Source: a phage. From it: a stretch of 64,000 bases of DNA. Where the stretch lies: NCBI GenBank assembly GCA_011915565.1, contig GCA_011915565.1_3920.1. One strand, 5' to 3'. Made by a program: the position numbers and the translations under genes. Below the pieces are notes generated by a model, which did not search any database, was not told the DNA's origin, and saw only the letters and a program-made list of their open reading frames with translations. Positions 16,012-51,414 of this stretch are shown piece after piece; the stretch's first letter is position 1, and every line of letters starts with the position of its first letter.

Positions 16012-17793
16012 ATGACTAAATCACTTTATGCAGTACCAGCAGGTTTAAACGCAGATGCTTACAAATCTGGTCATGTTTACCAGTACCCTAGTGCAACAGA
16101 GTACTTGATGTTCAACCTGACACCACGTAGTGACAAATGGTTTAACAGCCCCTTAGCAATTGATGGTGTAGTAGCTTTTGGTATTCAACGTTTCGTTAAA
16201 GATTACTTGATAGACCACTGGAACGCCACTTTCTTTGAACGTGATAAAAAAGAAGCCATTGATGAAATCTTAGAAGTTATGAATGGTGTTCTGGGTAAAG
16301 ATGCTATCGGTCGAGAGCATTGGGAAGCACTTCACGACTTAGGTTATCTACCAGTTGAAGTATACGCTGTAGAAGAAGGTACAGTTGTTCCTATGCGTGT
16401 ACCAATGATTGTCTTCCAGAACACTGTTTCAGGTTTCCATTGGGTAGCGGGATATCTGGAAGATGCTTTCTCTGCTGAGATTTGGAAGGCTTGTACCATT
16501 GCAACTATTGCATTGCATTATAAACGCATCTGTAAGAAGTGGGCTGACCTTACTTGCGACAATGACTTACATTTACCTTATCAGTGCCATGACTTTGCTA
16601 TGCGTGGTATGTCCGGCTTTACTGATGACGCATTTAACGCTGTAGGCCACTTAACCAGCTTTAAAGGGACTGATAGCTTCCCTGCTGTATATACAGCTAA
16701 ACGCATCTACGGACAGTCTTACCCAGTCTCTGATATTGGTGGTTCTGTACCAGCCACTGAACACTCTGTAATGTGTGCAAACATTGCTTGGGAAGGTGGT
16801 AATGAGTTGGTTGAAGAAGAAAGACGCTTTAAAGGTGAGTTGCAAACCTTCCGTCGCTTCTTAACAGAAACTTATCCAACTGGTATTGCAAGTGTTGTTT
16901 CAGACACTTATAACTTCTGGAGAACTGTGTCAGAAATCTTACCAGCACTCCGTAAAGAAATTATGGAACGTGATGGCAAACTGGTAATTCGTCCTGACTC
17001 TGGAGACCCTGTACACATTGTCACAGGTTATAAAGCAATCCACTTAGAGTGTGCTAAAAAGGCTTATTATGAGCACCTAAGCAATCTGGAAGCCAGTGAC
17101 ACAATGCTGAATGCTGTTCTGAACATGAAGCTTGAAAACATCAGCTATGGTATTGCTGGATGGCTACTGTCAGAAGGCTACGAAATGGTTGTTGACAGAG
17201 AAGACTTTGAAGTTGCTGATACAGTGATGTTGAAGAACGCTTATATGGTTGGTTCTGCAAACGTTGTAACACGCCCTGTAGCAGAGATTGATGGAGCTAT
17301 TAAGACCTTGTATAACATCTTTGGAGGAACTATTAACTCTAAAGGTTTTAAGGTACTGGATGAGCACATTGGCCTTATCTATGGCGACTCTATCACGTTG
17401 GAACGTGCAAACGAAATCCTGAAGCGTCTGTATGAAATGGGGTTTGCAAGCTCTAACGTGGTGTTTGGTGTAGGCTCTTACACTTACCAGTACATGACTC
17501 GTGACACCTTTGCATTTGCTGTCAAAGCAACTCTTGCAAGCATTGGTGGCAAAGAGATTATGCTTGCAAAAGACCCTAAAACAGATAGTGGTGTTAAGAA
17601 ATCTGCCTTTGGTGGTGTAGCACCTATGTGGGATGGTGAGAATTTGAAAGCTGTAGATGGCTATGGATTCCAGAGCTTTGCAGATGCACTTGAACATCCA
17701 GCTTGTGCTTTACGTTTAGTCTTTAGCGACTCTGAGCAGTACGGTTACACAACTCTTGGTGATATTCGAAATAATATTGACAATCAGCTTTAA
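16012..17793 (+). CDS. nicotinamide phosphoribosyltransferase-like enzyme (NAMPT/NadV family; candidate NAD+-forming transferase)
   Basis: 593 aa; N-terminal NADAYKSGHVYQYP resembles the conserved NAMPT start (DSYK..H..QYP). Confidence 0.75.
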   Translation: MTKSLYAVPAGLNADAYKSGHVYQYPSATEYLMFNLTPRSDKWFNSPLAIDGVVAFGIQRFVKDYLIDHWNATFFERDKKEAIDEILEVMNGVLGKDAIGREHWEALHDLGYLPVEVYAVEEGTVVPMRVPMIVFQNTVSGFHWVAGYLEDAFSAEIWKACTIATIALHYKRICKKWADLTCDNDLHLPYQCHDFAMRGMSGFTDDAFNAVGHLTSFKGTDSFPAVYTAKRIYGQSYPVSDIGGSVPATEHSVMCANIAWEGGNELVEEERRFKGELQTFRRFLTETYPTGIASVVSDTYNFWRTVSEILPALRKEIMERDGKLVIRPDSGDPVHIVTGYKAIHLECAKKAYYEHLSNLEASDTMLNAVLNMKLENISYGIAGWLLSEGYEMVVDREDFEVADTVMLKNAYMVGSANVVTRPVAEIDGAIKTLYNIFGGTINSKGFKVLDEHIGLIYGDSITLERANEILKRLYEMGFASSNVVFGVGSYTYQYMTRDTFAFAVKATLASIGGKEIMLAKDPKTDSGVKKSAFGGVAPMWDGENLKAVDGYGFQSFADALEHPACALRLVFSDSEQYGYTTLGDIRNNIDNQL

Positions 17794-31939: not shown

Positions 31940-32203
31940 ATGGAAAACGTAGAATTAACCACACTATTGCAGATTGCAACTGACAAAGAAGACGTAGCGT
32001 TGTTTCACCGTATCGAAAGTGATTTGTTCAATGGTGAAATCATTAAAGAATCTTACGAAGTTGTCGGATTCAAAGATGGTAAAGCATTTGGCTTTTTTGA
32101 CCTCGACAAAAGCAAAGCGGTTACAATGTACGATGTTCTATCTTGTGAAATTCTGACAAAATACAACGAAAAAAGGCTTGCAACCTACGCCAATATGCAG
32201 TAA
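31940..32203 (+). CDS. early-array small protein 12
   Basis: 87 aa. Confidence 0.5.
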   Translation: MENVELTTLLQIATDKEDVALFHRIESDLFNGEIIKESYEVVGFKDGKAFGFFDLDKSKAVTMYDVLSCEILTKYNEKRLATYANMQ

Positions 32204-32270
32204 ATTACTAATCAACGGGGAGGGAATGACCTTCCCACTAAACAAAGTCCTAAACTGGAGAATCTAAATT
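32178..32270 (+). promoter_or_regulatory. class-A element copy 6 (TTGCAA-17-TAAATT plus hairpin leader)
   Basis: TAAATTACTAATCAACGGGGAGGGAATGACCTTCCCACTAAACAAAGTCCTAAACTGGAGAATCTAAATT-ATG. Confidence 0.55.
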
Positions 32271-32519
32271 ATGTCAACTATCCGCGTAACTGTTAATGCT
32301 TATGGCTGCCACCAACTTGATGCAAAATTCGATATCGGTGGAACAGATAACACCTTTGACCTTATCAAAATGCTGATTCAGCAGGTGATACCAGATTATA
32401 ACCCTACTGATGACTTCTGGAAAGATGCCGTAAAAGAAGCCATAAACGAGGAATCTCACTACCATTATTGGGGTGACTTGATTATCTCTCTGTACTACAG
32501 CAAACAAGGTTACAACTAA
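32271..32519 (+). CDS. early-array small protein 13
   Basis: 82 aa. Confidence 0.5.
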   Translation: MSTIRVTVNAYGCHQLDAKFDIGGTDNTFDLIKMLIQQVIPDYNPTDDFWKDAVKEAINEESHYHYWGDLIISLYYSKQGYN

Positions 32520-32521
32520 TC

Positions 32522-32580
32522 GACGCAGCGGGGCTATTTAGCCCCAGATACCTGAAAAGCTCCTTCTCATAGGGGCTTTT
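32522..32580 (+). terminator. candidate terminator / truncated class-B hairpin
   Basis: GGGGCTATTTAGCCCCAGATA (class-B-like hairpin start) then AGGGGCTTTTTT. Confidence 0.4.
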
Positions 32581-34235
32581 TTACGTCTATAAAGAGACTC
32601 TATACAGTCCCTTTCCTTTCCTTCCTAGAATCTATCCCACTAATTCGATAGAGACTATCTCATACCTTAAAAAGCAATAACTCTATAGTCTACTCTATAA
32701 CCTCTTATCAAATCAACTTAAATATAAGCCCATAACCCGAAAGGGAAGGGCAACCACTAAAACGCTCTATAAAGCTCTATAACAGCCTTATCAACCTAAC
32801 TTAAGCAATCATATTAACCCACTCTAAAAAGCCCTTTATAGAGCTTCCCAGAGCCTTAAAAGAATCTTATAAGGGTGTAAGCTTTATCATCTCGTTAGTA
32901 TTCTTGTGAATAACTAAAAAGGGATTGGTAGTTCCTTTAAAGTATGTTATAGGGGCTATAAAGTTACTCAAAAGTTACGTAAAAGAGGCTATAAAGTTAC
33001 GTGATAGATAGCTTAAAAGTTACGTAAATGCTAGCCCCCTTAACATTTTCTTAACAATTTCTTAACAATCCCTACATAGTTATGCTTTTAAGGCACTTGT
33101 TAGAGACTTGTTAGCCCTTGTTAAATCTCTGTTAAGACCACGTAAAAGCCTTGTAAGAGTCTTTGACATAGCCTTAAAAGCCTCTGTAAAGCCCTATAAA
33201 GAGCTATCCATACAGTTGAGGGGTAGATACTAGGAAGAGATTTAAAAGAGCTTATAAAGAGTTATAGAGAGCTTTTAAGAGGTATGTTTAAGAGTTCACT
33301 AAGAAAGGAAAGGGAATGATAAGAAAAGAGATAGTGACCATGCTAATAGCTTGTTAAAAAGATTAAACACTTGTTAGAAACTTGTTAATTATCTTAACAA
33401 AATAACTCTTTAAAATTAACTTGTTAACTCTTGTTAGTCATCTGTTAAGCCTCTGTAAAGTCTATGTATCAACTGTTAAGAAACTGTTACATCCCTGTTA
33501 GTTCTGTTAAGAATCTGTTAAGACCTCTGAAGAGATGTTAAGAGAATGTAGTAGCTGTTAAGAGATTGTTAAGGATATTTTAAAATTTTGCAAAGTACTT
33601 GTAAGGGAGCTGTTAAGGGCTACCAAGCAGATATACATCCTAATCAGATATTTTTGAGTTCCTTCAAAGACCCTAAAAAATGACTTGATAGTCCTATTTT
33701 ATAAAAATTTTAAAAATCTGAATAATTACCTAGACAGTCTTTTAAAAATACAGGTAGAAACAGGCTTATAAGATACCTTGTTAGTACCGTGTTAGACCTT
33801 GTGAGATAAGGTCTGTAAAGATATTCCTGTTAAGTTTGTTAAAACAGTCTATATAGAGGCTTAGTAGTGCCTAGTGAACACCTATAGAGGGTAACATAGC
33901 TGACATAGAGATTAAGGGGTGTATAGAGGCTTCTAAGAGCGTATAGAGAGATGGTTAAGGTGATTGTATAGGTTGTTAAGAAGGCTTGTTAGAAGAGTGT
34001 TTAGAGGGCTTATTAAAGGGCTAGTTAGAAGGGTTATACAGAGGGCTATTAAGACCACTAGATAGTTACTAAGATACTATATAGTACTATATAACTATAT
34101 AGAGAGTAAGATTAAGGAGGTTGTTAAGAAGGATAGATATTTTGTTCACATATGATGGTGACCCAGAGGTTGGGACAACCGATAAAATTTTATAAAAATT
34201 AAAAAGCCCCCGATTAAGGAGGCTCTTAAGATATT
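32581..34235. repeat. 1.65 kb ORF-free repeat-dense region between convergent gene blocks
   Basis: No 60-aa ORF in any frame; dozens of short motifs (CTGTTAAG, CTTGTTAG, YTATAAAG, TATAGAG); in 33420-33620 the TGTTA cores recur at about 10-bp multiples. Confidence 0.7.
34196..34226 (-). terminator. candidate intrinsic terminator (minus strand)
   Basis: Reverse complement gives AGCCTCC-TTAATC-GGGGGCT followed by TTTTT, just downstream of the 34236 gene end. Confidence 0.45.
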
Positions 34236-34829
34236 TTAAATCAGTGTTTCCAGAACTGTTTTAAGGGATGACTTAGTTGTCTGATAAAAATGAATGAATC
34301 CGTTGTTGTTATCGAATATCTGCATCATGATATCATCTCCCTTGATTGGGTATACTCGGATATCATAGTGAAAACCATTAAAGACACAAGACCCATTACA
34401 GAATGCGCTAAAGTCATCCACTGAGATATACTCTTCATGTCCTGTGATTTTTATACAAACACCTTTACTCGGTCTCTTAGGGTTGATATCTTCCATCACA
34501 GACATACTCTGTCCACCAAGAGATACCATAGTGACCACTTTACGGTTCTTCTGTCTAAAGTACATCTTAACTTTCTGCAAAGTGTCTTCATAGAACGGAT
34601 AAGACCTAGCTACAAAGATTCCTTCAAGTGGCTCTTTACCATTTTCAACTTCTCTGGTATGTCGTACTGCAAAGATAATTTGTTGGAACCAGTCAAGATT
34701 TTCTTCGGAGAGTGCTTCTCGAACATCACTCCAGTCAAGGACTAAGTAGTTACCTTCAACTTCTTTTAAGTTATCTTTTTCCATATCTATCACACCATTA
34801 TCGTAAAACTTGGTAAGCTGGTACTGCAA
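34236..34829 (-). CDS. hypothetical protein
   Basis: 197 aa; start may be the internal Met at about 34784 given overlap with the upstream gene. Confidence 0.6.
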   Translation of the reverse strand: MQYQLTKFYDNGVIDMEKDNLKEVEGNYLVLDWSDVREALSEENLDWFQQIIFAVRHTREVENGKEPLEGIFVARSYPFYEDTLQKVKMYFRQKNRKVVTMVSLGGQSMSVMEDINPKRPSKGVCIKITGHEEYISVDDFSAFCNGSCVFNGFHYDIRVYPIKGDDIMMQIFDNNNGFIHFYQTTKSSLKTVLETLI

Positions 34830-35262
34830 ACTTGTTGCTATTGTTCCTAATAATGTCTTCTTCTGTTACTAAGAATGTAATCCCACATAAGTGCGTATAG
34901 TGGCTGTCATACTCGAATATTTTAAGTAAGTATTTACCATCATGATAAACAAATTCTACTACACCTTTTGCAACAATCTTTCCAGTCTTGAAGTCTTTAA
35001 GAGGGTATGTATTACCAACTTTAGGGGCTGTTTTCACTTCAGGTTCTTTTAGCTTCTCACTAGCTTCTACATCACCTAGTAAGTTAGAACTTTCAAAAGC
35101 TCTGAATCTCATATAAGCTTCTGAACATTCCCAGATAAAACAATGTACAAGAACCTTAGCAGCATGTCTTGAGCAATTCAACTCATCACAGATTTCTTTG
35201 TACATTTCATCTTTAGTTGAATTGGTAAGCATTGCTTTTCGAACTGTTTCTTTAATTTTCAT
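34798..35262 (-). CDS. hypothetical protein
   Basis: 154 aa ORF. Confidence 0.55.
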   Translation of the reverse strand: MKIKETVRKAMLTNSTKDEMYKEICDELNCSRHAAKVLVHCFIWECSEAYMRFRAFESSNLLGDVEASEKLKEPEVKTAPKVGNTYPLKDFKTGKIVAKGVVEFVYHDGKYLLKIFEYDSHYTHLCGITFLVTEEDIIRNNSNKFAVPAYQVLR

Positions 35263-44148: not shown

Positions 44149-44225
44149 CTCTGTTTAGCTCAGCTTGGTAGAGCGTTCCGTTTGGGGCGGTAAGGCCGGA
44201 GGTTCAAGTCCTCCAACAGAGACCA
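44149..44225 (+). tRNA. tRNA-Pro (anticodon TGG)
   Basis: Manual cloverleaf: acceptor CTCTGTT/AACAGAG, GGTTCAAGTCC T-arm, CCA encoded. Confidence 0.7.
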
Positions 44226-44232
44226 AATTAAT

Positions 44233-44310
44233 GTTCCAGTAGACAAAATGGTAAAGTCACCACTCTTTCAAAGTGGATATCTGAGGGTTCAAATCCCTTC
44301 TGGAACGCCA
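44233..44310 (+). tRNA. tRNA-Glu (anticodon TTC)
   Basis: Acceptor GTTCCAG/CTGGAAC; anticodon stem CCACT/AGTGG, loop CTTTCAA; CCA encoded. Confidence 0.7.
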
Positions 44311-44315
44311 GTTTT

Positions 44316-44392
44316 GACAGAAGACCAATTACAGCAAACTTAATCTTATTCATCTGAAGGTAAATCGGACAAAGAAGAGATTTGGTCTGGTC
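44316..44392 (+). other. tRNA-spacer structured element, copy 1 (CAGAAGACC...GGTCTGG)
   Basis: Conserved CAGAAGACCAATTACAGCAA head and TTGGTCTGG tail forming a 7-bp closing stem. Confidence 0.5.
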
Positions 44393-44401
44393 ATTAAGAA
44401 T

Positions 44402-44478
44402 TGCGGGTATAGAGAAAGGGTGTCTCACATGTCTCATTAGCATGGTATCGGCAGGTTCGACTCCTGCACCCGCCTCCA
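44402..44478 (+). tRNA. tRNA-Met (anticodon CAT)
   Basis: D-stem GAGA/TCTC, anticodon loop CTCATTA, T-arm GCAGG-TTCGACT-CCTGC, CCA encoded. Confidence 0.65.
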
Positions 44479-44480
44479 AA

Positions 44481-44550
44481 TTTACAGAAGACCGTTTACA
44501 GCAATACTTATTAAATTTTTAGCGGAAAAATTGAAAGATACGGTCTGGTA
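44481..44550 (+). other. tRNA-spacer structured element, copy 2
   Basis: TTTACAGAAGACCGTTTACAGCAA...ACGGTCTGG. Confidence 0.5.
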
Positions 44551-44561
44551 ATACTAAACAT

Positions 44562-44638
44562 GGTTAGGAAGCACATAAGGTATGTGCGGTCGCCTGTTAA
44601 GCGAATGGCACAGGGTTCGAATCCCTGACTAACCGCCA
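44562..44638 (+). tRNA. tRNA-Asn (anticodon GTT)
   Basis: Acceptor GGTTAGG/ACTAACC; anticodon loop CTGTTAA; T-arm CAGGG-TTCGAAT-CCCTG. Confidence 0.65.
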
Positions 44639-44646
44639 AATTAAAT

Positions 44647-44734
44647 GTGTCGTTATCCCGTAGATGGTAGCGGTGGGGACTGTAAATCCCTTGTCATTGA
44701 GACTCGGTAGGTTCGACTCCTACACGGCACACCA
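44647..44734 (+). tRNA. tRNA-Tyr (anticodon GTA), long variable arm
   Basis: 88 nt; anticodon stem-loop GGGGA-CTGTAAA-TCCCT; type II structure. Confidence 0.65.
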
Positions 44735-44739
44735 ATAAA

Positions 44740-44816
44740 GGCTATGTAGTTTAACTGGAGAAAATACTCCCCTGTCACGGGAGATGATGTGAGTTCAAGT
44801 CTCATCGTAGCCGCCA
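44740..44816 (+). tRNA. tRNA-Asp (anticodon GTC)
   Basis: Acceptor GGCTATG/CGTAGCC; anticodon stem CTCCC/GGGAG, loop CTGTCAC. Confidence 0.7.
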
Positions 44817-44875
44817 ATTTTGAGAGGGCTATTTAGTTCCTCCCTTAAAGAGTTCTTACGAGTATTCTTTAAAGG

Positions 44876-44952
44876 AGCAGAAGACCAAATACAGCAAGAA
44901 TGTATGAAATTTCAAGCCAATTTAATTTTGAAAATTTAAAACTTGGTCTGGC
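44876..44952 (+). other. tRNA-spacer structured element, copy 3
   Basis: GCAGAAGACCAAATACAGCAA...CTTGGTCTGG. Confidence 0.5.
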
Positions 44953-44963
44953 TCAACAAATTT

Positions 44964-45098
44964 ACAGAAGACCGTTTACAGCAAAACTTAAACAATCTAT
45001 TTCTCCGGTAAAGAAAAGGCGAAGGTTCGATTCCTTCACTCGGCAGATGTCGAGTTGGTGTAATGGTAGCACTTAAGATGATAAACAACGGTCTGGTA
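44964..45098 (+). other. tRNA-spacer structured element, copy 4, containing a degenerate tRNA-like segment
   Basis: TTTACAGAAGACCGTTTACAGCAA head; T-arm-like GAAGG-TTCGATT-CCTTC, hairpin ACTCGGCA/TGTCGAGT, D-arm-like TGGTGTAATGGTAGCAC, then ACGGTCTGG. Confidence 0.45.
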
Positions 45099-45239
45099 AT
45101 TATCTTTGTAGATAAGTTATTAAGCTTACCTGTGAGTATGCGACCACAAAGGGTGAAGGGTAAATTCTAGATTTAAACCCAAAAGGCACATCGCTACAGA
45201 CCTTAAGCAAGTCTGGGTAGCTTATCTACAAAGATAATT
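45098..45239 (+). other. perfect 19-bp inverted repeat enclosing 104 nt
   Basis: AATTATCTTTGTAGATAAG at 45098-45116 and its exact reverse complement at 45221-45239; lies between spacer element 4 and tRNA-Lys. Confidence 0.6.
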
Positions 45240-45243
45240 TAAT

Positions 45244-45319
45244 GGAAGTGTAGCAGAATGGTGATGCGGCAGACTTTTAATCTGACAGGCGATGGGTTCG
45301 AATCCCTCCACTTCTACCA
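45244..45319 (+). tRNA. tRNA-Lys (anticodon TTT)
   Basis: Anticodon loop CTTTTAA; T-arm ATGGG-TTCGAAT-CCCTC; paralog of the 46541 tRNA. Confidence 0.6.
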
Positions 45320-45397
45320 AATTCACCCTTAACTGAGAAACACCTGCGCGGCTGGAAACACCCACTCAACAGTTTCTCTAACTAGGGTACTTATTCT

Positions 45398-45474
45398 GGT
45401 TCAGTCGCAGATAAGGTAATGCAAGGGTCTCATAAGCCCTATGAATGTGGGTTCGATTCCCATCTGAACCTCCA
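45398..45474 (+). tRNA. tRNA with CAT anticodon (Met or lysidine-Ile)
   Basis: Acceptor GGTTCAG/CTGAACC; anticodon stem AGGGT/GCCCT, loop CTCATAA. Confidence 0.6.
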
Positions 45475-45475
45475 A

Positions 45476-45551
45476 GCTGGTATAGTTAAGAAGGTTATAA
45501 CACTCCCCTGATAAGGGAACATCGGTGGTTCGATTCCACCTACCAGTACCA
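45476..45551 (+). tRNA. tRNA-Ile (anticodon GAT)
   Basis: Acceptor GCTGGTA/TACCAGT; anticodon loop CTGATAA. Confidence 0.65.
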
Positions 45552-45566
45552 ATTTCAATAAAGTTG

Positions 45567-45595
45567 TTGACATTGAGATGTGACTCCTTTATACT
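45567..45595 (+). promoter_or_regulatory. sigma70-like promoter (TTGACA-17-TATACT)
   Basis: Inside the tRNA array, upstream of a 200-nt hairpin-rich spacer and tRNA-Arg. Confidence 0.55.
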
Positions 45596-45797
45596 AACCT
45601 TAGTTTTCGTTGCGTAGCGTCTATTTTGCAAATTTAAAATAAATGCAAACGACAATGTTTTTCTGGCAGTAGCTTGATAGGCTAAACACCAGTGAGGTCT
45701 TCCAATCCCTCATCAAAGAATTTGGCGTACTCGCCCACGGTATGATTAATAAGGTGGGCATCTTTAAGGGCTTTCTAAGAGAGTCTTTAAAGATAAT

Positions 45798-45874
45798 GCA
45801 CCCTTAGTTCAATTGGATAGAGCAACGGTCTTCTAAATCGTTAGTTACAGGTTCGAATCCTGTAGGGTGTACCA
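45798..45874 (+). tRNA. tRNA-Arg (anticodon TCT)
   Basis: Acceptor GCACCCT/AGGGTGT; D-arm GTTC...GAGC; anticodon loop CTTCTAA. Confidence 0.7.
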
Positions 45875-46016
45875 AATAGTTAGCAGATTACTTAGACGGC
45901 CTTAGCGGGTCTTCCTGTAGGGAGGTGGTCTGTATCTCATGTTTTCCAGAACATGTAAATAATCTGAGAAGAAGCTTGACAGTGTTGAGATAACAGGGTA
46001 AGCTTCGAATTATAAT

Positions 46017-46099
46017 ATGGGACGATGTTAAGACTCTAAGGCATGAGCAACGGCCTCCAAAACCGTTTCAAAGGGGTTCAACTCCTCCGTCCCATGCCA
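46017..46099 (+). tRNA. tRNA-Trp (anticodon CCA)
   Basis: Acceptor ATGGGAC/GTCCCAT; anticodon loop CTCCAAA; 83 nt with enlarged D region; preceded by TATAAT. Confidence 0.55.
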
Positions 46100-46112
46100 A
46101 AGTCTTATTAGG

Positions 46113-46200
46113 GGTAGGTAGCGGCTAATGGCAGCCAAACAGTCTTGAAAACTGTTGCCACTGTAGAGATACGGTGAGGGTTCGACTCCTTTACTTACCG
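46113..46200 (+). tRNA. tRNA-Ser (anticodon TGA), long variable arm
   Basis: Anticodon stem ACAGT/ACTGT, loop CTTGAAA; type II; no CCA encoded. Confidence 0.6.
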
Positions 46201-46376
46201 CCTAATAAGATTTACTCCGTCCATGCTTGTTCGCATTGTCGGTTTATCCCTCGTGTATTGTCGTACACTGTCAAAGCACCTAGTAGGTGTCACGGAGAAG
46301 AGATAATATCAAGCTCTCCAAAGGTTCTAGTCACCGGATTAAACAAGACTATGCAAAGACCTATTTAGGTCTTTTT
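46201..46376 (+). ncRNA. candidate structured non-coding RNA ending in an intrinsic terminator
   Basis: No ORF; long-range complementarity (ACTCCGTCC ... GTCACGGAGAAG); ends with AGACC-TATTT-AGGTCT plus TTTTT at 46355-46376. Confidence 0.4.
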
Positions 46377-46456
46377 AGAGGGCTTCTAAGGTTATTAGTC
46401 GCTTGTTGTGGAACCTTGTTGCTCAGGTTCTTAGAAGTTCTCTAAAAAGATTTAAT

Positions 46457-46533
46457 GCACCTATAGCCCAACTGGTAGAGGCAGCAGACTTAGAATCTGC
46501 TCAGTGTGAGTTCGAATCTCTCTAGGTGTACCA
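46457..46533 (+). tRNA. tRNA with TAG anticodon (Leu by anticodon; short variable arm)
   Basis: Acceptor GCACCTA/TAGGTGT; anticodon stem GCAGA/TCTGC, loop CTTAGAA; 77 nt, type I. Confidence 0.55.
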
Positions 46534-46540
46534 AATTAAT

Positions 46541-46616
46541 GCAGGTGTAGCAAAATGGTTATGCGGCTGACTCTTAATCAGTAAGACGATGGGTTCAATT
46601 CCCTCCACCTGTACCA
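46541..46616 (+). tRNA. tRNA-Lys (anticodon CTT)
   Basis: Paralog of the 45244 tRNA; anticodon loop CTCTTAA. Confidence 0.55.
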
Positions 46617-46622
46617 AACAAT

Positions 46623-46698
46623 GGGGTCATAGTTTATATGGTTAAAATTCGAGTTTTGCAAACTTGGGAACCGAGTTCAATTCTCGGTGACTCCACCA
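46623..46698 (+). tRNA. tRNA-Ala (anticodon TGC)
   Basis: Clean 76-nt cloverleaf: GGGGTCA acceptor, GTTT/AAAT D-stem, loop TTTGCAA, T-arm CCGAG-TTCAATT-CTCGG. Confidence 0.7.
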
Positions 46699-46704
46699 AT
46701 TAGT

Positions 46705-46779
46705 GCATCCATAGTTTAAACGGGAAAATTACAGTCTTCCAAACTGAGGTTGAGGGTTCGATTCCCTCTGGATGCTCCA
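46705..46779 (+). tRNA. tRNA-Gly (anticodon TCC)
   Basis: Acceptor GCATCCA/TGGATGC; anticodon loop CTTCCAA. Confidence 0.65.
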
Positions 46780-46786
46780 AATTAAT

Positions 46787-46862
46787 GCTCCTATCGTATA
46801 ATTGGTTATTACGGTTGCCTTGTAAGCAACTTATCAGGGTTCGAGTCCTTGTGGGAGCACCA
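46787..46862 (+). tRNA. tRNA-Thr (anticodon TGT)
   Basis: Anticodon stem GTTGC/GCAAC perfect, loop CTTGTAA; T-arm CAGGG-TTCGAGT-CCTTG. Confidence 0.7.
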
Positions 46863-46892
46863 ATTCAGAGGTCAAGTGAAAGACCGCTTTGA

Positions 46893-46950
46893 GTCAACTG
46901 AAGACCGTAACAAATTCCACGGAGTTGAGTTAGCGGCACAACTCCAGACC
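46893..46950 (+). other. tRNA-spacer structured element, diverged copy 5
   Basis: CTGAAGACCGTAACAAATTCC related to the CAGAAGACC head; enclosed by AGAGGTC/GACCTCT inverted repeat. Confidence 0.4.
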
Positions 46951-46958
46951 TCTTTCAT

Positions 46959-47033
46959 ACTCGCTTAGTTTATATGGTAAAACATCACCCTTACAAGATG
47001 AAGAAAAAGGTTCAAGTCCTTTAGTGAGTACCA
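46959..47033 (+). tRNA. tRNA-Val (anticodon TAC)
   Basis: D-stem GTTT/AAAC; anticodon loop CTTACAA; T-arm AAAGG-TTCAAGT-CCTTT. Confidence 0.65.
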
Positions 47034-47034
47034 T

Positions 47035-47112
47035 GTTCCAGTATCCCAATTGGCAGAGGATGCAAGCTCAAACCTTGTATTAGTGACGGTTCGAATCCGT
47101 CTTGGAACACCA
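47035..47112 (+). tRNA. tRNA with CAA anticodon (Leu by anticodon; short variable arm)
   Basis: Acceptor GTTCCAG/TTGGAAC; anticodon stem GCAAG/CTTGT, loop CTCAAAC; T-arm GACGG-TTCGAAT-CCGTC. Confidence 0.55.
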
Positions 47113-47117
47113 ATTTT

Positions 47118-47193
47118 GCAGGATTAGTTCAAATGGAAAGAGCAACAGTCTACGAAGCTGTTAATAGGGGTTCGAATCCCTTATCCTGCGCCA
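47118..47193 (+). tRNA. tRNA-Arg (anticodon ACG)
   Basis: Clean 76-nt cloverleaf; anticodon stem ACAGT/GCTGT, loop CTACGAA. Confidence 0.7.
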
Positions 47194-47210
47194 GATAAAA
47201 AGGTGATACT

Positions 47211-47453
47211 ATGCAAACATTAACAGTAGTTGAACATGAAAACTGTGAGAGTATTGAGTTTGTCAGGGTCATTGGTGTTGAACACCACATTTTCTTAAAA
47301 GTTGGATACTTATGTGACCCCGCTAGAGTAGAAAGATTTATACGTGATTGTTTTGGTGGTAGACATCTGAAGAGTGTTATTTTTGAGACAGTTTTACCAG
47401 AAGGTTTAGAAACGAATAATAACATTTACCTCCTTACGAGGATTAGACAATGA
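47211..47453 (+). CDS. hypothetical protein embedded in tRNA array
   Basis: 80 aa; AAGGTGA RBS 6 nt upstream; directly follows tRNA-Arg. Confidence 0.5.
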   Translation: MQTLTVVEHENCESIEFVRVIGVEHHIFLKVGYLCDPARVERFIRDCFGGRHLKSVIFETVLPEGLETNNNIYLLTRIRQ

Positions 47454-48007
47454 GATACTTAAAGTATGCTTCATGGATTTTCTTAGCTTTGTTAGAGCCA
47501 TTTGCAGCAATCTTAGCAGTTATCTTAGCACCTTTTGTAGTTCCATTCTACAGTGAGAAGAAAGGACACTTACCTTTCGGGTTCAGATGGATGGAGACTT
47601 ATGACAACCCAATTGATGGTGATGCAGGTCATATCAAACGATGGGCTAAGATTAGAAAGATTGGTAAGCTTGGTGTCTACATGCAGAGAGTTGGATGGCT
47701 CTGGAGAAACAAAGCTTATAACTTCTCTTACCATGTGTTAGGAAGAGATGTAAAAGACGTTACTAAGTGGAAAGGTAATATCAACGTAAGTTCTAACCCT
47801 GAAGATAATCAGACAGGTTATCTCCTAATGTGGAACAGTAATGCTTGGGGATTATTCGCTTTTATCCCATCAATTAAAATCTTTGGTAAACAATTCTACT
47901 GGAGAATTTATGTTGGATGGAAACTTAAAAGTGTTGTCCCAGAAGAAAGAGCATTCTCAAGGGAAAGAGTTATGTTGGCATTCTTTATTCATCCACTAAG
48001 AAAGTAA
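47450..48007 (+). CDS. membrane protein embedded in tRNA array
   Basis: 185 aa; N-terminal TM segment WIFLALLEPFAAILAVILAPFVVPF; start overlaps upstream stop (ATGA). Confidence 0.6.
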   Translation: MRYLKYASWIFLALLEPFAAILAVILAPFVVPFYSEKKGHLPFGFRWMETYDNPIDGDAGHIKRWAKIRKIGKLGVYMQRVGWLWRNKAYNFSYHVLGRDVKDVTKWKGNINVSSNPEDNQTGYLLMWNSNAWGLFAFIPSIKIFGKQFYWRIYVGWKLKSVVPEERAFSRERVMLAFFIHPLRK

Positions 48008-48015
48008 AGATTTAA

Positions 48016-48091
48016 AGGGGATTAGTTTACAAGGTTAAAACCTCGGTCTTTGAAATCGAAGAAGTTGGTTCAATTCCAACATCCCCCGCCA
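48016..48091 (+). tRNA. tRNA-Gln (anticodon TTG)
   Basis: Anticodon loop CTTTGAA; T-arm GTTGG-TTCAATT-CCAAC; unpaired 1:72 and G73. Confidence 0.65.
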
Positions 48092-48093
48092 AT

Positions 48094-48172
48094 GCTCCAT
48101 TACTCCAATTGGCAGAGAGGCCAGACTTAAAATCTGTGTTATGTATCGGTTCGAATCCGATATGGAGTACCA
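48094..48172 (+). tRNA. tRNA with TAA anticodon (Leu by anticodon; short variable arm)
   Basis: Acceptor GCTCCAT/ATGGAGT; anticodon loop CTTAAAA; D-loop AATTGGCAGA shared with the 47035 tRNA. Confidence 0.5.
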
Positions 48173-48177
48173 AATTT

Positions 48178-48253
48178 AGCGGTATAGCATAACTGGCAAT
48201 GCAGCAGCCTCTGAAGCTGTCCTATTAAGGTTCAAATCCTTATGCCGCTGCCA
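48178..48253 (+). tRNA. tRNA-Gln (anticodon CTG)
   Basis: Acceptor AGCGGTA/TGCCGCT; anticodon stem GCAGC/GCTGT, loop CTCTGAA; G73. Confidence 0.6.
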
Positions 48254-48284
48254 CTTCTAAGGATTCTTACGAGAGTCCTTAAAT

Positions 48285-48360
48285 GTGGCCTTATCATAAA
48301 TGGTAATGACCCATGCTGTGAACATGGTCTATACGGGTTCAAATCCCGTAGGTCACCCCA
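48285..48360 (+). tRNA. tRNA-His (anticodon GTG)
   Basis: Anticodon stem CCATG/CATGG perfect, loop CTGTGAA; discriminator C. Confidence 0.7.
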
Positions 48361-48366
48361 ATTTAT

Positions 48367-48442
48367 AGTCCAAGTAGCTTATATGGTTAAAGCGCGTGTC
48401 TGAAAAACATGAGAAGAGGGTTCAAATCCCACTGGACTACCA
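48367..48442 (+). tRNA. tRNA-Phe (anticodon GAA)
   Basis: Anticodon stem CGTGT/ACATG, loop CTGAAAA; T-loop TTCAAAT; CCA encoded. Confidence 0.6.
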
Positions 48443-48458
48443 ATTTCAAAGGTGCTTA

Positions 48459-49193
48459 ATGAAAGAGATGACAGAACAAGGTAAGGAGATTTTCAATCTC
48501 TTAAAAACCGGTAAAGGGTTTTCTAACCCCCTTATTACTGGTGCAGCAGTTCTCGGTGGAACCGTAGCTGCCTCTACATCACTTGTAAGCTCTATTAGCT
48601 CTGTATCAGACCCTACAGTAAAGGATAAGCTTGTTGCTGCTGGACTTACAACAGTTCTGCTTAACAGCTTTACCACGAGTCTGACAAGCACTACATCAAC
48701 TACCAAAACACTAACAGATTACGGTCAAAAGTCCATTGATGAGTTTTCATCACGTATGCAGGTAGCAAAAGGTTACTCTAATGTTATGGGTGCAGCAGGT
48801 GAACAAGTTGGCTGTACACCATTTAGTGGTATTATGGGTGTTGCTACAGAGTATGGTCAAAAAGCTATTGATACGATTAACAGTGCACTAGATAGTGTTA
48901 ATGGTGTGTTAAGTGACTTACAAGATGCTATTGACAAAGGTCTTGATACTATTTCTGATTTAGCTGAGCAAGCTGTTAGTAAGATTAATGAAGGTATTTC
49001 AAAAATTACAGCTTATGCAGATGAAGTTGTGCAGATGATTGAAGAAGAAGCTGCTCTTATTGCAGAGTACCTTAAAACGAATATCAATGGGTTCTTAGCA
49101 GGTATCTTACCAGACTGGTTTGATGATGCTTGTAAAACTGGTGTAATTGACACTATTGCAACACCAGAAATGAAGAACGCATTACAGAAATAA
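48459..49193 (+). CDS. hypothetical protein (Ser/Thr-rich N-terminus, helical C-terminus)
   Basis: Track ORF starts at 48396 inside tRNA-Phe; first ATG after the tRNA (48459) with AAAGGTG RBS chosen. Confidence 0.55.
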   Translation: MKEMTEQGKEIFNLLKTGKGFSNPLITGAAVLGGTVAASTSLVSSISSVSDPTVKDKLVAAGLTTVLLNSFTTSLTSTTSTTKTLTDYGQKSIDEFSSRMQVAKGYSNVMGAAGEQVGCTPFSGIMGVATEYGQKAIDTINSALDSVNGVLSDLQDAIDKGLDTISDLAEQAVSKINEGISKITAYADEVVQMIEEEAALIAEYLKTNINGFLAGILPDWFDDACKTGVIDTIATPEMKNALQK

Positions 49194-49195
49194 AT

Positions 49196-49288
49196 GGAAG
49201 ATTAACCCTAAAAGGTAAGGGAGCAGTTTGCTAAACTGCCAGTAGCTGAGAAATCGGTGTACCAGTTCAAGTCTGGTATCTTCCTCCA
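49196..49288 (+). tRNA. tRNA-Ser (anticodon GCT), long variable arm
   Basis: Acceptor GGAAGAT/ATCTTCC; anticodon stem GCAGT/ACTGC, loop TTGCTAA; T-arm TACCAG-TTCAAGT-CTGGTA. Confidence 0.65.
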
Positions 49289-49292
49289 ATTT

Positions 49293-49368
49293 GAATCCGT
49301 GACAGAAACGGCTATGTGCCTGTCTGCAAAACAGGTTTATAAGGGTTCGAGTCCCTTCGGATTCTCCA
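49293..49368 (+). tRNA. tRNA-Cys (anticodon GCA)
   Basis: Acceptor GAATCCG/CGGATTC; anticodon stem CCTGT/ACAGG, loop CTGCAAA. Confidence 0.7.
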
Positions 49369-49791: not shown

Positions 49792-49812
49792 TTCTATTTG
49801 CGGAGGTGCTTA

Positions 49813-51414
49813 ATGGACTTAAATGCTGTTAAGCAGAAGCGAGTGGAAGATGTTAGGAAAGTCCTAGCTGGAGAGTTGGGGCTTTCTGATGAAGTAAAAG
49901 AAATTATCAAATCATTCGGTAAAGACCCCTCTAAATTCCTTCCAACTCAAATTCTGACTTTATTAAGATACACACCAGACCAAGTTCGCCTTATCTTTAA
50001 ATTGATGACTGATAAGAACTATGTAGCCCCTCAGCCGGGTTCTCAAGAGGTCTTTTTAAATACTAATGCTGACTTGGTTCTCTATGGTGGTGCTGCTGGT
50101 GCTGGTAAGACTGCCGCATTGTTAATGGACTCTTTAAGATTTATTGAAGACCCTAACTATAATGCTGTATATTTCCGTCGAAATACAACACAGTTACAAG
50201 GTGGTTTATGGCCTGCCGCAAAGAAACTATTTGGTAAGTTTGGTGGGATTCCTCACGAGCAGAAAATGACTATCACATTCCCTTCTGGGGCAACTATCAA
50301 GTTTACCTACCTAGAACTTGAAAAGCACGCTGAAGGTCATCAGGGTATTGAATACTCAGCTATTTACTTTGACGAAGGTACGCACTTCTCTGCTTCACAG
50401 ATTTCATACCTACAAACCCGTCTACGTTCTGGTGCTGAAGGTGATTCATACATGAAGATTTCCATGAACCCAGACAGAGACCACTTTATTTACGATTGGG
50501 TAGAACCATTCTTAGATGAAGAAGGTTATCCAGACCCTGAAAAGTGTGGTCGTATTCGTTGGTATGTAATGAACGATGGTGTGATGGTTTCTGATTGGGA
50601 GAGAGACAAGATTCTTGAAATGTTCCCTCTTGAGATTCCTCAAACATACACCTTTATCTCTGGTACGATTGATGATAACCCAATCCTTGACTTCTTAGAG
50701 CCTAAGTACCGTGGTAAGTTGGAAAACAACACCCCTGTAAACGTTGCAAGACTTCGTTTCGGTAACTGGAAGGCTCGTGCAGAAGGTTCAAACTATTGGC
50801 AAAGACAATGGTGTGAAATTGTTGATTCACTACCAGAAGATGTATTTGATGTTAGAGCATGGGACTTAGCAGCAACTTTACCATCGGAGATTAACCCTAA
50901 TCCAGACTGGACAGCAGGTGTTAAGATGGGTAAATCTAAAAAAGACGGTTGCTATTATATCATTGATGTAGTAAGATTTAGAGATAGACCCTCTGGAGTC
51001 GAAACACAAATTAATTTGACTGCTGAAAGTGACGGTAAGCGAACTGGTATTTTTATCCCTCAAGACCCAGGCGCTGCTGGTAAATCCTACGCAACATCCC
51101 TCATCAGGAAACTTGCCGAGAAAGGTTATCGAGCAAGAGCCAAACCAACAAATAAAGATAAAGTTACCCGCTTTGCGGGATTTTCTGCTGCTTCTGAAGC
51201 TGGACTTGTAAAAGTCTTGAGAGGTAGTTGGAATGAAGCTTACTTTCAAGAGCTTGAAGGCTTTTGTGGCGATGGTAAAACTAAAGATGACCAAGTGGAT
51301 GCTACCAGTGATGCTTTCAACAGTCTTAACGAAGTTAAATTATTCAAGCCACCATCAATGGGTGCTCACACAGATTTAGTGAGAGGAAACCCATATGAGG
51401 GGCTTAGACGTTGA
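49813..51414 (+). CDS. terminase large subunit
   Basis: Walker A LYGGAAGAGKT; track start 49798 is TTG, ATG at 49813 with GGAGGTG RBS chosen. Confidence 0.85.
   Translation: MDLNAVKQKRVEDVRKVLAGELGLSDEVKEIIKSFGKDPSKFLPTQILTLLRYTPDQVRLIFKLMTDKNYVAPQPGSQEVFLNTNADLVLYGGAAGAGKTAALLMDSLRFIEDPNYNAVYFRRNTTQLQGGLWPAAKKLFGKFGGIPHEQKMTITFPSGATIKFTYLELEKHAEGHQGIEYSAIYFDEGTHFSASQISYLQTRLRSGAEGDSYMKISMNPDRDHFIYDWVEPFLDEEGYPDPEKCGRIRWYVMNDGVMVSDWERDKILEMFPLEIPQTYTFISGTIDDNPILDFLEPKYRGKLENNTPVNVARLRFGNWKARAEGSNYWQRQWCEIVDSLPEDVFDVRAWDLAATLPSEINPNPDWTAGVKMGKSKKDGCYYIIDVVRFRDRPSGVETQINLTAESDGKRTGIFIPQDPGAAGKSYATSLIRKLAEKGYRARAKPTNKDKVTRFAGFSAASEAGLVKVLRGSWNEAYFQELEGFCGDGKTKDDQVDATSDAFNSLNEVKLFKPPSMGAHTDLVRGNPYEGLRR

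Follow-up and report, generated by a model that had tools for sequence, protein, structure and literature searches.

Why should a phage genome hold some 1.65 kb of DNA without a sizeable open reading frame (ORF), filled instead with short repeated motifs? The question is raised by positions 32,581–34,235 of a 64,000-nucleotide stretch of phage DNA (contig GCA_011915565.1_3920.1 of GenBank assembly GCA_011915565.1; the whole stretch is called the window below). A sequence-only reading of this DNA had offered several candidate roles for the interval, namely a replication origin with iterons, a packaging or genome-end region, and a centromere-like or nucleoid-protein loading site. The packaging or genome-end role is the one that stands, with termini that map to positions 33034 and 33624, and nothing was found in favour of a centromere or nucleoid-loading site. 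We conclude from comparison with the sequences of relatives that the interval is very probably the concatemer junction, or genome-end region, of the chromosome of a Felix O1-like myovirus. The sequence-only reading had named this role; it had recognised neither the direct terminal repeat (DTR), collapsed to a single copy, that lies within the interval nor the boundaries of that repeat.

The window represents a Felixounavirus genome, placed in the Ounavirinae, and matches 258 phage records at approximately 80–93% identity, nearly all of them from Felix O1-like myoviruses with Escherichia, Salmonella, Shigella, or Citrobacter as hosts. The left chromosome end (33034) and the right chromosome end (33624) were located through these relatives: the records of Pr103Blw, ZX4221, SeKF_63, E9, and SPJ41 have their first or last base at the exact counterpart of 33034, with a second copy of the repeat in each, and those of Pr103Blw, ZX4221, Ro111lw, and SPJ41 stop precisely at the counterpart of 33624. 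For Pr103Blw, a 581-bp “short direct terminal repeat” is annotated at both record ends, and both copies align to 33034–33624; for UAB_69, a 618-bp “DTR” is annotated at this locus and maps to 33032–33626. Aligned to the repeats of these relatives, the DTR of the window starts with GCCCCCTTAACA and ends with TGTTAAGGGCTACC, and it divides the ORF-free interval into three parts, i.e., the right chromosome tail (32583–33033), the DTR itself, and the left chromosome head (33625–34201). It is present once in the window and would be present twice in virion DNA; the single copy implies that the assembly collapsed the two terminal copies, as in other circular-looking assemblies of DTR phages.

The DTR is already documented in this genus, and the kind of element is known. 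DTR packaging was assigned with PhageTerm in the paper on Pr103Blw, time-limited Bal31 digestion combined with run-off sequencing gave a 608-bp DTR for UAB_Phi87, the first paper on Felix O1 took the mismatch between the genome size on gels and the sequenced length as a sign of short terminal repeats, and the large terminase subunit (TerL) of Felix O1-like phages forms a DTR cluster of its own (PMC4837284). The record of UAB_Phi87 itself is opened elsewhere, and its first 1.5 kb are free of any DTR annotation. The hallmarks of the short exact DTR class are seen in this group: the same sequence stands at both ends of the virion DNA in relatives, and the ends are fixed and sequence-specific, not permuted, as independent record ends demonstrate (in Kolesnikvirus as well). 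As a side observation, a Felix O1-like terminal region is found at 86% identity in positions 135472–136739 of GU169904.1 (“Staphylococcus phage SA1”, 147 kb), which points to that record being a chimeric or contaminated deposit.

The two boundaries follow a rule that can be applied to other genomes. The left boundary AAAGTTACGTAAAnGCTA/GCCCCCTTAACA (the slash marks the cut; the repeat starts with GCCCCC) and the right boundary TGTTAAGGGCTACC/AAGCAGATATACA hardly vary among 29 sequences that represent three genera, the same three to which the neighbouring gene of 182 aa is confined. DTR lengths obtained with these boundary anchors range from 559 to 638 bp with a median of 591 bp (one mis-anchored locus, L027, was left out), and every DTR holds 19–23 plus-strand TGTTA sites, TGTTA being the core of the main repeated motif, despite this variation in length. 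The rule was then applied to Erwinia phage phiEa21-4 (Kolesnikvirus), a genome that has no megablast-level similarity to the region and carries a syntenic gap free of coding sequences (CDSs) where, as in the window, plus-strand genes give way to minus-strand genes; the rIIA/rIIB arm lies on one side of this gap and the tRNA cluster on the other. In this gap TGTTAA occurs 17 times (0.7 expected), inverted TTAACA copies lie on the left, and the same TTTTGCAAAG and AAGCAGATATACA elements are present; in the alignment of the window with phiEa21-4 almost no columns are invariant outside the TGTTAA cores, TTTTGCAAAG, and AAGCAGATATACA. The gap pattern of the array is also kept (11, 11, 9, 20, 20, 20, 11 in phiEa21-4 vs. 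11, 11, 9, 11, 20, 20, 11 in the window), and the sites are conserved one by one with Moogle too. From the boundary motifs alone, the DTR of phiEa21-4 was predicted at 17028–17466, with a length of 439 bp. In phiEa21-4 coordinates, Kolesnikvirus records start at 17027–17029 and end at 17465–17468 (the SPARTY record ends at the predicted right boundary), and the DTR published for Kolesnikvirus SPARTY from PhageTerm has 439 bp (class “DTR, T7-like”). Since the prediction matches both the record ends and the published length, the boundary rule is predictive.

The repeats that fill the interval were counted on the plus strand and compared with 1000 dinucleotide-preserving shuffles. They clearly exceed this control for TGTTA (27 copies vs. 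2.9 ± 1.7 in shuffles, z 14.5), TGTTAA?G (20 vs. 1.1, z 18), and TATA[AG]AG (13 vs. 1.3, z 10), the excess of TTAAAAG being marginal (4 vs. 0.95, z 3.2). TGTTA is strongly biased between the strands (27 copies on the plus strand, 6 on the minus strand), and the figure of more than 30 motif copies given earlier is reached once minus-strand copies are included. The motif is also concentrated in one place, as TGTTAA?G has 19 copies in 33001–34000 and 0–2 in each of the other 63 kb. TGTTA sites at 33422, 33432, 33443, 33474, 33485, 33496, 33505, 33516, 33536, 33556, 33567, and 33611 agree to within 1–2 nt with the core positions that had been listed before. The sites within 33352–33611 are best described by a period of 10.3 bp (p ~ 0.001), and the Fourier power for 33422–33567 is 9.6 of a possible 11, a value reached by 0.05–0.1% of random placements with a minimum spacing of 9 bp. 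The helical phasing of about 10 bp thus applies to the TGTTA family; the TATARAG/TTAAAAG family, for which it does not hold, is enriched without significant phasing (p = 0.115).

Within the DTR these units are arranged in a distinctive order. Three inverted units (CTTAACA is the reverse complement of TGTTAAG) begin 3 nt from the left end, where relatives have between 2 and 5 copies of the 11-bp unit CTTAACAnnnn. They are followed by a first cluster of direct units, a mixed, purine-rich middle, and the main direct array, whose successive gaps are 20, 11, 39, 10, 11, 31, 11, 11, 9, 11, 20, 20, 11, and 44. The main array includes one inverted unit (33393–33399) and terminates in TGTTAAGGG (33611–33619), 5 nt from the right end. 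This 9-mer has exactly two copies in the 64 kb when both strands are searched, and these are the outermost units, facing outward, 3 and 5 nt from the ends; read inward, the two virion ends start alike, with GCC-CCCTTAACA and GGTAG-CCCTTAACA. Repeated and phased sites that adjoin a cut, as in pac or cosB, are therefore present here, with units 3–5 nt from each cut. When folded as a single strand, the DTR pairs its inverted left units with the right array in a panhandle (−62.5 kcal/mol, z = −2.45), which is only mildly better than shuffles and was not used as evidence. A scan of viral contigs for CTGTTA-N5-6-CTGTTA-N5-6-CTGTTA was uninformative, the matches listed being mostly perfect 12-bp tandem repeats in unrelated contigs.

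Conservation was evaluated in an alignment of 18 sequences (the window and 17 relatives, with 4-kb flanks), identity being calculated over aligned columns. Identity to the window is 0.88 in the left flank, which has indels of repeat units, 0.91 in the DTR, and 0.95 in the right flank (33625–34199), and ranges from 0.77 to 0.95 in eleven neighbouring ORFs. The whole non-coding block is under purifying selection. Within it, the five TGTTA core bases are conserved at 0.97 vs. 0.83 at other positions, and in the five most divergent genomes at 0.88 vs. 0.69 (permutation p ≤ 0.0002). The TGTTA cores, both boundary sequences, and the spacing of the sites are conserved across four genera.

This selection does not act on a protein-coding sequence. 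As the sequence-only reading had stated, no ORF of at least 60 aa exists across about 1.65 kb: between the stop of the plus-strand ORF at 32519 and the end of the minus-strand ORF at 34236, the longest ORF of 32520–34235 in any frame has 41 aa, and every such ORF has a TTG or GTG start. Homologous phages agree, as curated relatives from Felixounavirus, Suspvirus, and Mooglevirus have the same CDS-free gap between convergent terminators, with no CDS annotated in it. Substitutions relative to the 17 relatives lack codon periodicity in the non-coding DNA (0.085/0.084/0.082 at the three codon positions), and in the same comparison the flanking ORFs have an excess at the third position (0.137/0.132/0.333 and 0.049/0.049/0.137). 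Tiny “hypothetical protein” CDSs of 25–49 aa are annotated inside the DTR and its flanks in records of relatives (OL656108, 15081–15158 and 15227–15376; LMP34, SeKF_63, and E9); they are probably spurious calls, because the substitution pattern has no codon periodicity. In wV8, SP22, GLBO_sp7, and LNA1, the counterpart of window positions 32000–35000 (3 kb) spans approximately 3.65 kb, i.e., it has an insertion of approximately 0.7 kb, which sits in the coding flanks; the non-coding block itself measures 1804 bp in wV8.

The two convergent terminators between which the interval had been placed (near 32575 and near 34200) were both confirmed, in the sequence and in annotated relatives. The plus-strand hairpin has the stem AAAGCTCC/GGGGCTTT and the loop TTCTCATA, followed by a T-run, and a terminator annotation stands at the matching site in ASO1A, Moogle, and Mordin. 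In chromosome terms, the plus-strand gene block is the right arm, read towards the right end, while the minus-strand block is the left arm, read towards the left end. Both arms are thus transcribed outward and halted at terminators, so that no gene crosses the chromosome ends.

Repeats extend into both flanks of the DTR (Table 1). On the left, every 23-nt unit contains AAAGTTAC, the left cut falls right at the end of the last unit, and the perfect palindrome TTACGTAA or its variant TTACGTGA recurs at 32975, 32997, and 33020 (a spacing of ~22.5 bp). The left-flank motif is genus-specific, namely CTTCTAA[AG] in phiEa21-4 (9–12 copies) vs. CTATAAAG/TTAAAAG in the window. The AA/TT periodicity of the region is in the top 0.1% of windows. 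A 24-bp insertion, ATGAGGTAGATTCTACCGAATCAA, is found just outside the right DTR boundary (after 33639) in four loci (L015, L025, L027, and L030), and it has a mosaic distribution, in scattered genomes of different genera. In three DTR phages of enterobacteria that are unrelated or only distantly related, the flank motifs have a pyrimidine-TAA(A)G core in common, namely CCTAAAG at the T7 junction, CTTCTAAG in phiEa21-4 (16600–16915), and CTATAAAG/CTGTAAAG/TGTTAAG in the window (32583–33033). A shared host factor or a physical property of the DNA might lie behind this likeness, which could also be a coincidence. In intergenic regions 15/16 and 19/20, the Felix O1 paper describes 57-bp repeats with CTTAAAAG and CTGTAAAG inside a GGGGCTTA...TAAGCCCC hairpin, hence flank-type motifs are also part of terminator-like hairpins at other places in the genome.

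Table 1. Features of the genome-end region and the large terminase gene, in window coordinates.
Feature	Position	Strand	Basis or content
Intrinsic terminator, end of plus-strand gene block	32556–32582 (hairpin 32556–32579 plus T-run)	+	Read from the sequence
Non-coding DNA inside the right chromosome end	32583–33033	.	TATA[AG]AG, CTCTATA, and TTAAAAG motifs in both orientations
Three 23-nt units (at 32955, 32988, and 33011)	32955–33033	+	Repeat family D11
Direct terminal repeat, 591 bp	33034–33624	.	Alignment to both Pr103Blw DTR copies, record ends, UAB_69 annotation
Inverted units CCCTTAACA, CTTAACA, CTTAACA (11-bp period)	33037–33067	-	Motif scan, relatives
First direct cluster, four [CT]TGTTA[AG] units (at 33098, 33109, 33119, and 33130)	33096–33136	+	Motif scan; repeat families D2 and D10
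Main direct array, 15 TGTTA units, ~10.3-bp phase	33350–33619	+	Motif scan, phasing, conservation
Boundary element AAGCAGATATACA, directly outside the right cut	33625–33637	+	Unique in the window; kept in all four genera
Most AT-rich stretch of the 64-kb window	33680–33735	.	Composition scan
Non-coding DNA inside the left chromosome end	33760–34140	+	Further TGTTA[AG] and TATAGAG units; families D4, D6, D12, and D15
Intrinsic terminator, end of minus-strand gene block	34202–34227	-	Terminator scan; annotated in ASO1A, Moogle, and Mordin
Large terminase subunit (TerL)	49798–51414	+	phrog_979, E 1e-233

In the DTR packaging class, as described by Casjens and Gilcrease and summarized in a paper citing them, concatemers are cut by the terminase at fixed sequences, and the repeat is duplicated to give two copies per virion DNA. 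TerL would be expected to make the cuts, at 33033/33034 and 33624/33625. In the mechanism that we propose for the window, the terminase would act on replicated concatemers with one repeat per junction, and a site-specific protein, either a small terminase subunit that went unrecognised or another phage protein, would bind head-to-tail on the 10–11-bp TGTTAAG lattice, along one face of the helix. The lattice would mark the repeat and position the cuts (left ...GCTA/GCCCCC, right ...GGGCTACC/AAGCAGATATACA), and the repeat would be duplicated as in T7-type phages, leaving a copy at both ends of the packaged chromosome. That the TGTTAAG arrays are packaging-recognition sites, which guide the terminase, is a proposition to which we would give slightly less than an even chance.

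A more speculative version treats the DTR as a “stretched cos site”. The outermost units (CCCTTAACA at 33037 and TGTTAAGGG at 33611) would present the boundaries in two-fold symmetry, and the same strand-specific nick would be made on opposite strands, 591 bp apart. A candidate phage protein would polymerise head-to-tail on the one-face lattice that fills the repeat, and strand-displacement synthesis from both nicks would duplicate it. The outward-facing end units suggest such a symmetric presentation of the boundaries and hence equivalent nicks, which is the geometry that duplication by strand displacement needs. We consider this version tentative, and on balance doubtful.

Several points weigh against the packaging interpretation or parts of it. 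The termini of this genome were assigned by homology, its boundary sequences being identical to those of mapped relatives, and the two sources for the boundaries lie 2 nt apart on each side (33034–33624 vs. 33032–33626). The conservation of repeated cores is possibly inflated, as aligners prefer to place repeat on repeat. The role of the arrays in guiding the terminase is one that we infer, and no small terminase or DNA binder was recognisable with PHROGs and Pfam among the ORFs upstream of TerL, whose products (66 aa, phrog_4397; 265 aa, DUF7217) belong to families of unknown function without a DNA-binding or small-terminase signature. In phiEa21-4 the outward unit at the right end, TGTTAAGGG, is degenerate (CTGAGAAGCG), therefore the idea of symmetric sites is not universal and an essential pair of TGTTAAGGG units is weakened. 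Finally, repeats that adjoin an AT-rich element fit a replication origin equally well.

If the region were, or included, such an origin, the TGTTAAG/TATAGAG units would be its iterons and the AT-rich stretch its unwinding element. We regard this as rather unlikely, even though multiple direct repeats, many of them phased, do stand next to an AT-rich element, as in iteron origins: the 40-mer at 33695 (87.5% AT) is the most AT-rich of the window, it lies 70 bp outside the DTR, the AT-rich stretch falls within the best-conserved part of the region (conservation 0.93–0.96), and purifying selection on the block is strong. Yet DnaA boxes are at background level, with a single site of at most one mismatch in the region, no initiator gene is adjacent (the neighbours encode small hypothetical proteins), and the GC skew follows the direction of transcription, giving no independent signal. 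The edges of the array fall at the mapped DNA ends, a coincidence not expected of an origin, and phages with T7-type DTRs use internal origins.

The arrays might alternatively act at the mature ends, where they would bind an end-protecting or end-pairing protein, or serve the start or pausing of DNA ejection in the manner of the repeat-rich stop region in the first-step transfer of T5. The same motif, read inward, within 3–5 nt of both virion ends is in line with such a function, as are arrays that reach into both unique flanks, but no experimental hint of it was found in the literature and the symmetry is weak in phiEa21-4, which makes it an improbable explanation. Still harder to credit, and contradicted by the conservation of the block, is a functionless spacer, in which slippage-prone filler would have accumulated between the convergent terminators. 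Variable copy number (2–5 CTTAACA units, DTRs of 559–638 bp) is what slippage would give; the identity of the block, however, equals or exceeds that of the flanking genes, TGTTA cores are conserved over the spacers, and the order and spacing of the sites are kept between genera that share no other DNA similarity. A centromere-like partition site or a non-coding RNA locus, finally, has nothing beyond the presence of repeats in its favour and is the least credible of all, as the phage is virulent, no partition genes were noticed near the region or among those annotated in relatives' flanks (no dedicated search was made), terminators stop transcription from either side short of the region, and an Rfam scan of 32400–34400 (E ≤ 1) returned only two noise matches far below gathering scores, hence no known RNA. 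A promoter scan gave 12 sigma-70-like sites vs. 9.7 ± 3.4 in shuffles, i.e., no enrichment.

Two further properties of the genome were noted apart from the terminal region. GATC is absent from the window (positions 1–64000), with approximately 220 sites expected from base composition or a Markov model, and CCWGG occurs 3 times, with approximately 56–62 expected, other 4-bp palindromes being only mildly depleted; this depletion suggests that sites of the Dam/Dcm or MboI/EcoRII type are very strongly selected against. In addition, 26 tRNA genes are clustered on the plus strand (44149–49368), between the minus-strand block and the terminase/portal genes, and a syntenic cluster is present in phiEa21-4.

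With the genome-end assignment, the conserved boundary motifs (…TTA/GCC… and …/AAGCAGATATACA) allow the real termini and the DTR of any Ounavirinae assembly to be located from the sequence, with no need to analyse reads. This is of practical value for phages employed in therapy and biocontrol, as many of their deposited genomes are opened arbitrarily, omit one copy of the repeat, or contain spurious small CDSs within the repeat. The literature found on Felix O1-like DTRs gives their length and position only, and no lattice, phasing, boundary consensus, or cross-genus conservation was found in it (few subscription journals were covered, so that this absence is not proof). What is new here, a modestly new level of detail, is the precise anatomy, the evidence that the block is under selection, and a boundary rule whose prediction was borne out by an independent result. 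As the lattice is well defined, strongly conserved, and helically phased, and comes in about 250 natural variants, binding, mutagenesis, and plasmid-transduction experiments on it are straightforward. If the stretched-cos version were true, it would explain why arrays of short repeats go together with direct terminal repeats, and the lattice would give the first sequence-level rule for both ends of short-DTR phages outside the T7 group.

Among known systems, the Felix O1-like DTRs (608 bp in UAB_Phi87, 581 bp in Pr103Blw, 618 bp in UAB_69, and 439 bp in SPARTY) are the same element as the DTR of the window, which aligns end to end with those of Pr103Blw and UAB_69. The lattice itself can be likened to the pacL and pacR boxes of SPP1 and the cosB R sites of lambda, where several short sites approximately one helical turn apart stand beside the terminase cut, an arrangement in keeping with a DNA-binding subunit that acts as a multimer. 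It differs from them in having far more sites (about 20 per DTR) and cuts that are 591 bp apart, instead of one site. In geometry only, it resembles the pho box bound by the winged-helix regulator PhoB, a head-to-tail series of 7-bp cores and 4-bp spacers with an 11-bp period; the units here consist of a 7–8-bp core and a 3–4-bp spacer in the same orientation, with a period of 10–11 bp that keeps them on one face of the helix.

The likeness to the short-repeat arrays around the terminal repeats of T7, which the sequence-only reading had pointed out, was borne out by inspection of the T7 junction. In T7, one repeat is present per concatemer junction and is duplicated on packaging, and the junction carries 13 same-strand copies of CCTAAAG, of which 2 lie to the left of the 160-bp DTR, 3 inside it, and 8 to its right. 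Both systems thus combine an exact short DTR, fixed ends, a non-coding block, and a motif on one strand that occupies the DTR and both flanks. They differ in the motif (TGTTAAG/TATARAG here vs. CCTAAAG), in its spacing (10–11 bp here vs. mostly 13 bp), and in the length of the repeat, which is four times greater here, and the T7 ends have no inverted similarity. In T7 the left flank has promoters and the genes are read inward; here transcription of both arms runs outward and meets terminators, and the phage is an unrelated myovirus without an RNA polymerase of its own. The element is accordingly an analogue of the T7-group arrays and not a member of that group, which is marked by CCTAAAG units at a spacing of ~13 bp in Autographiviridae.

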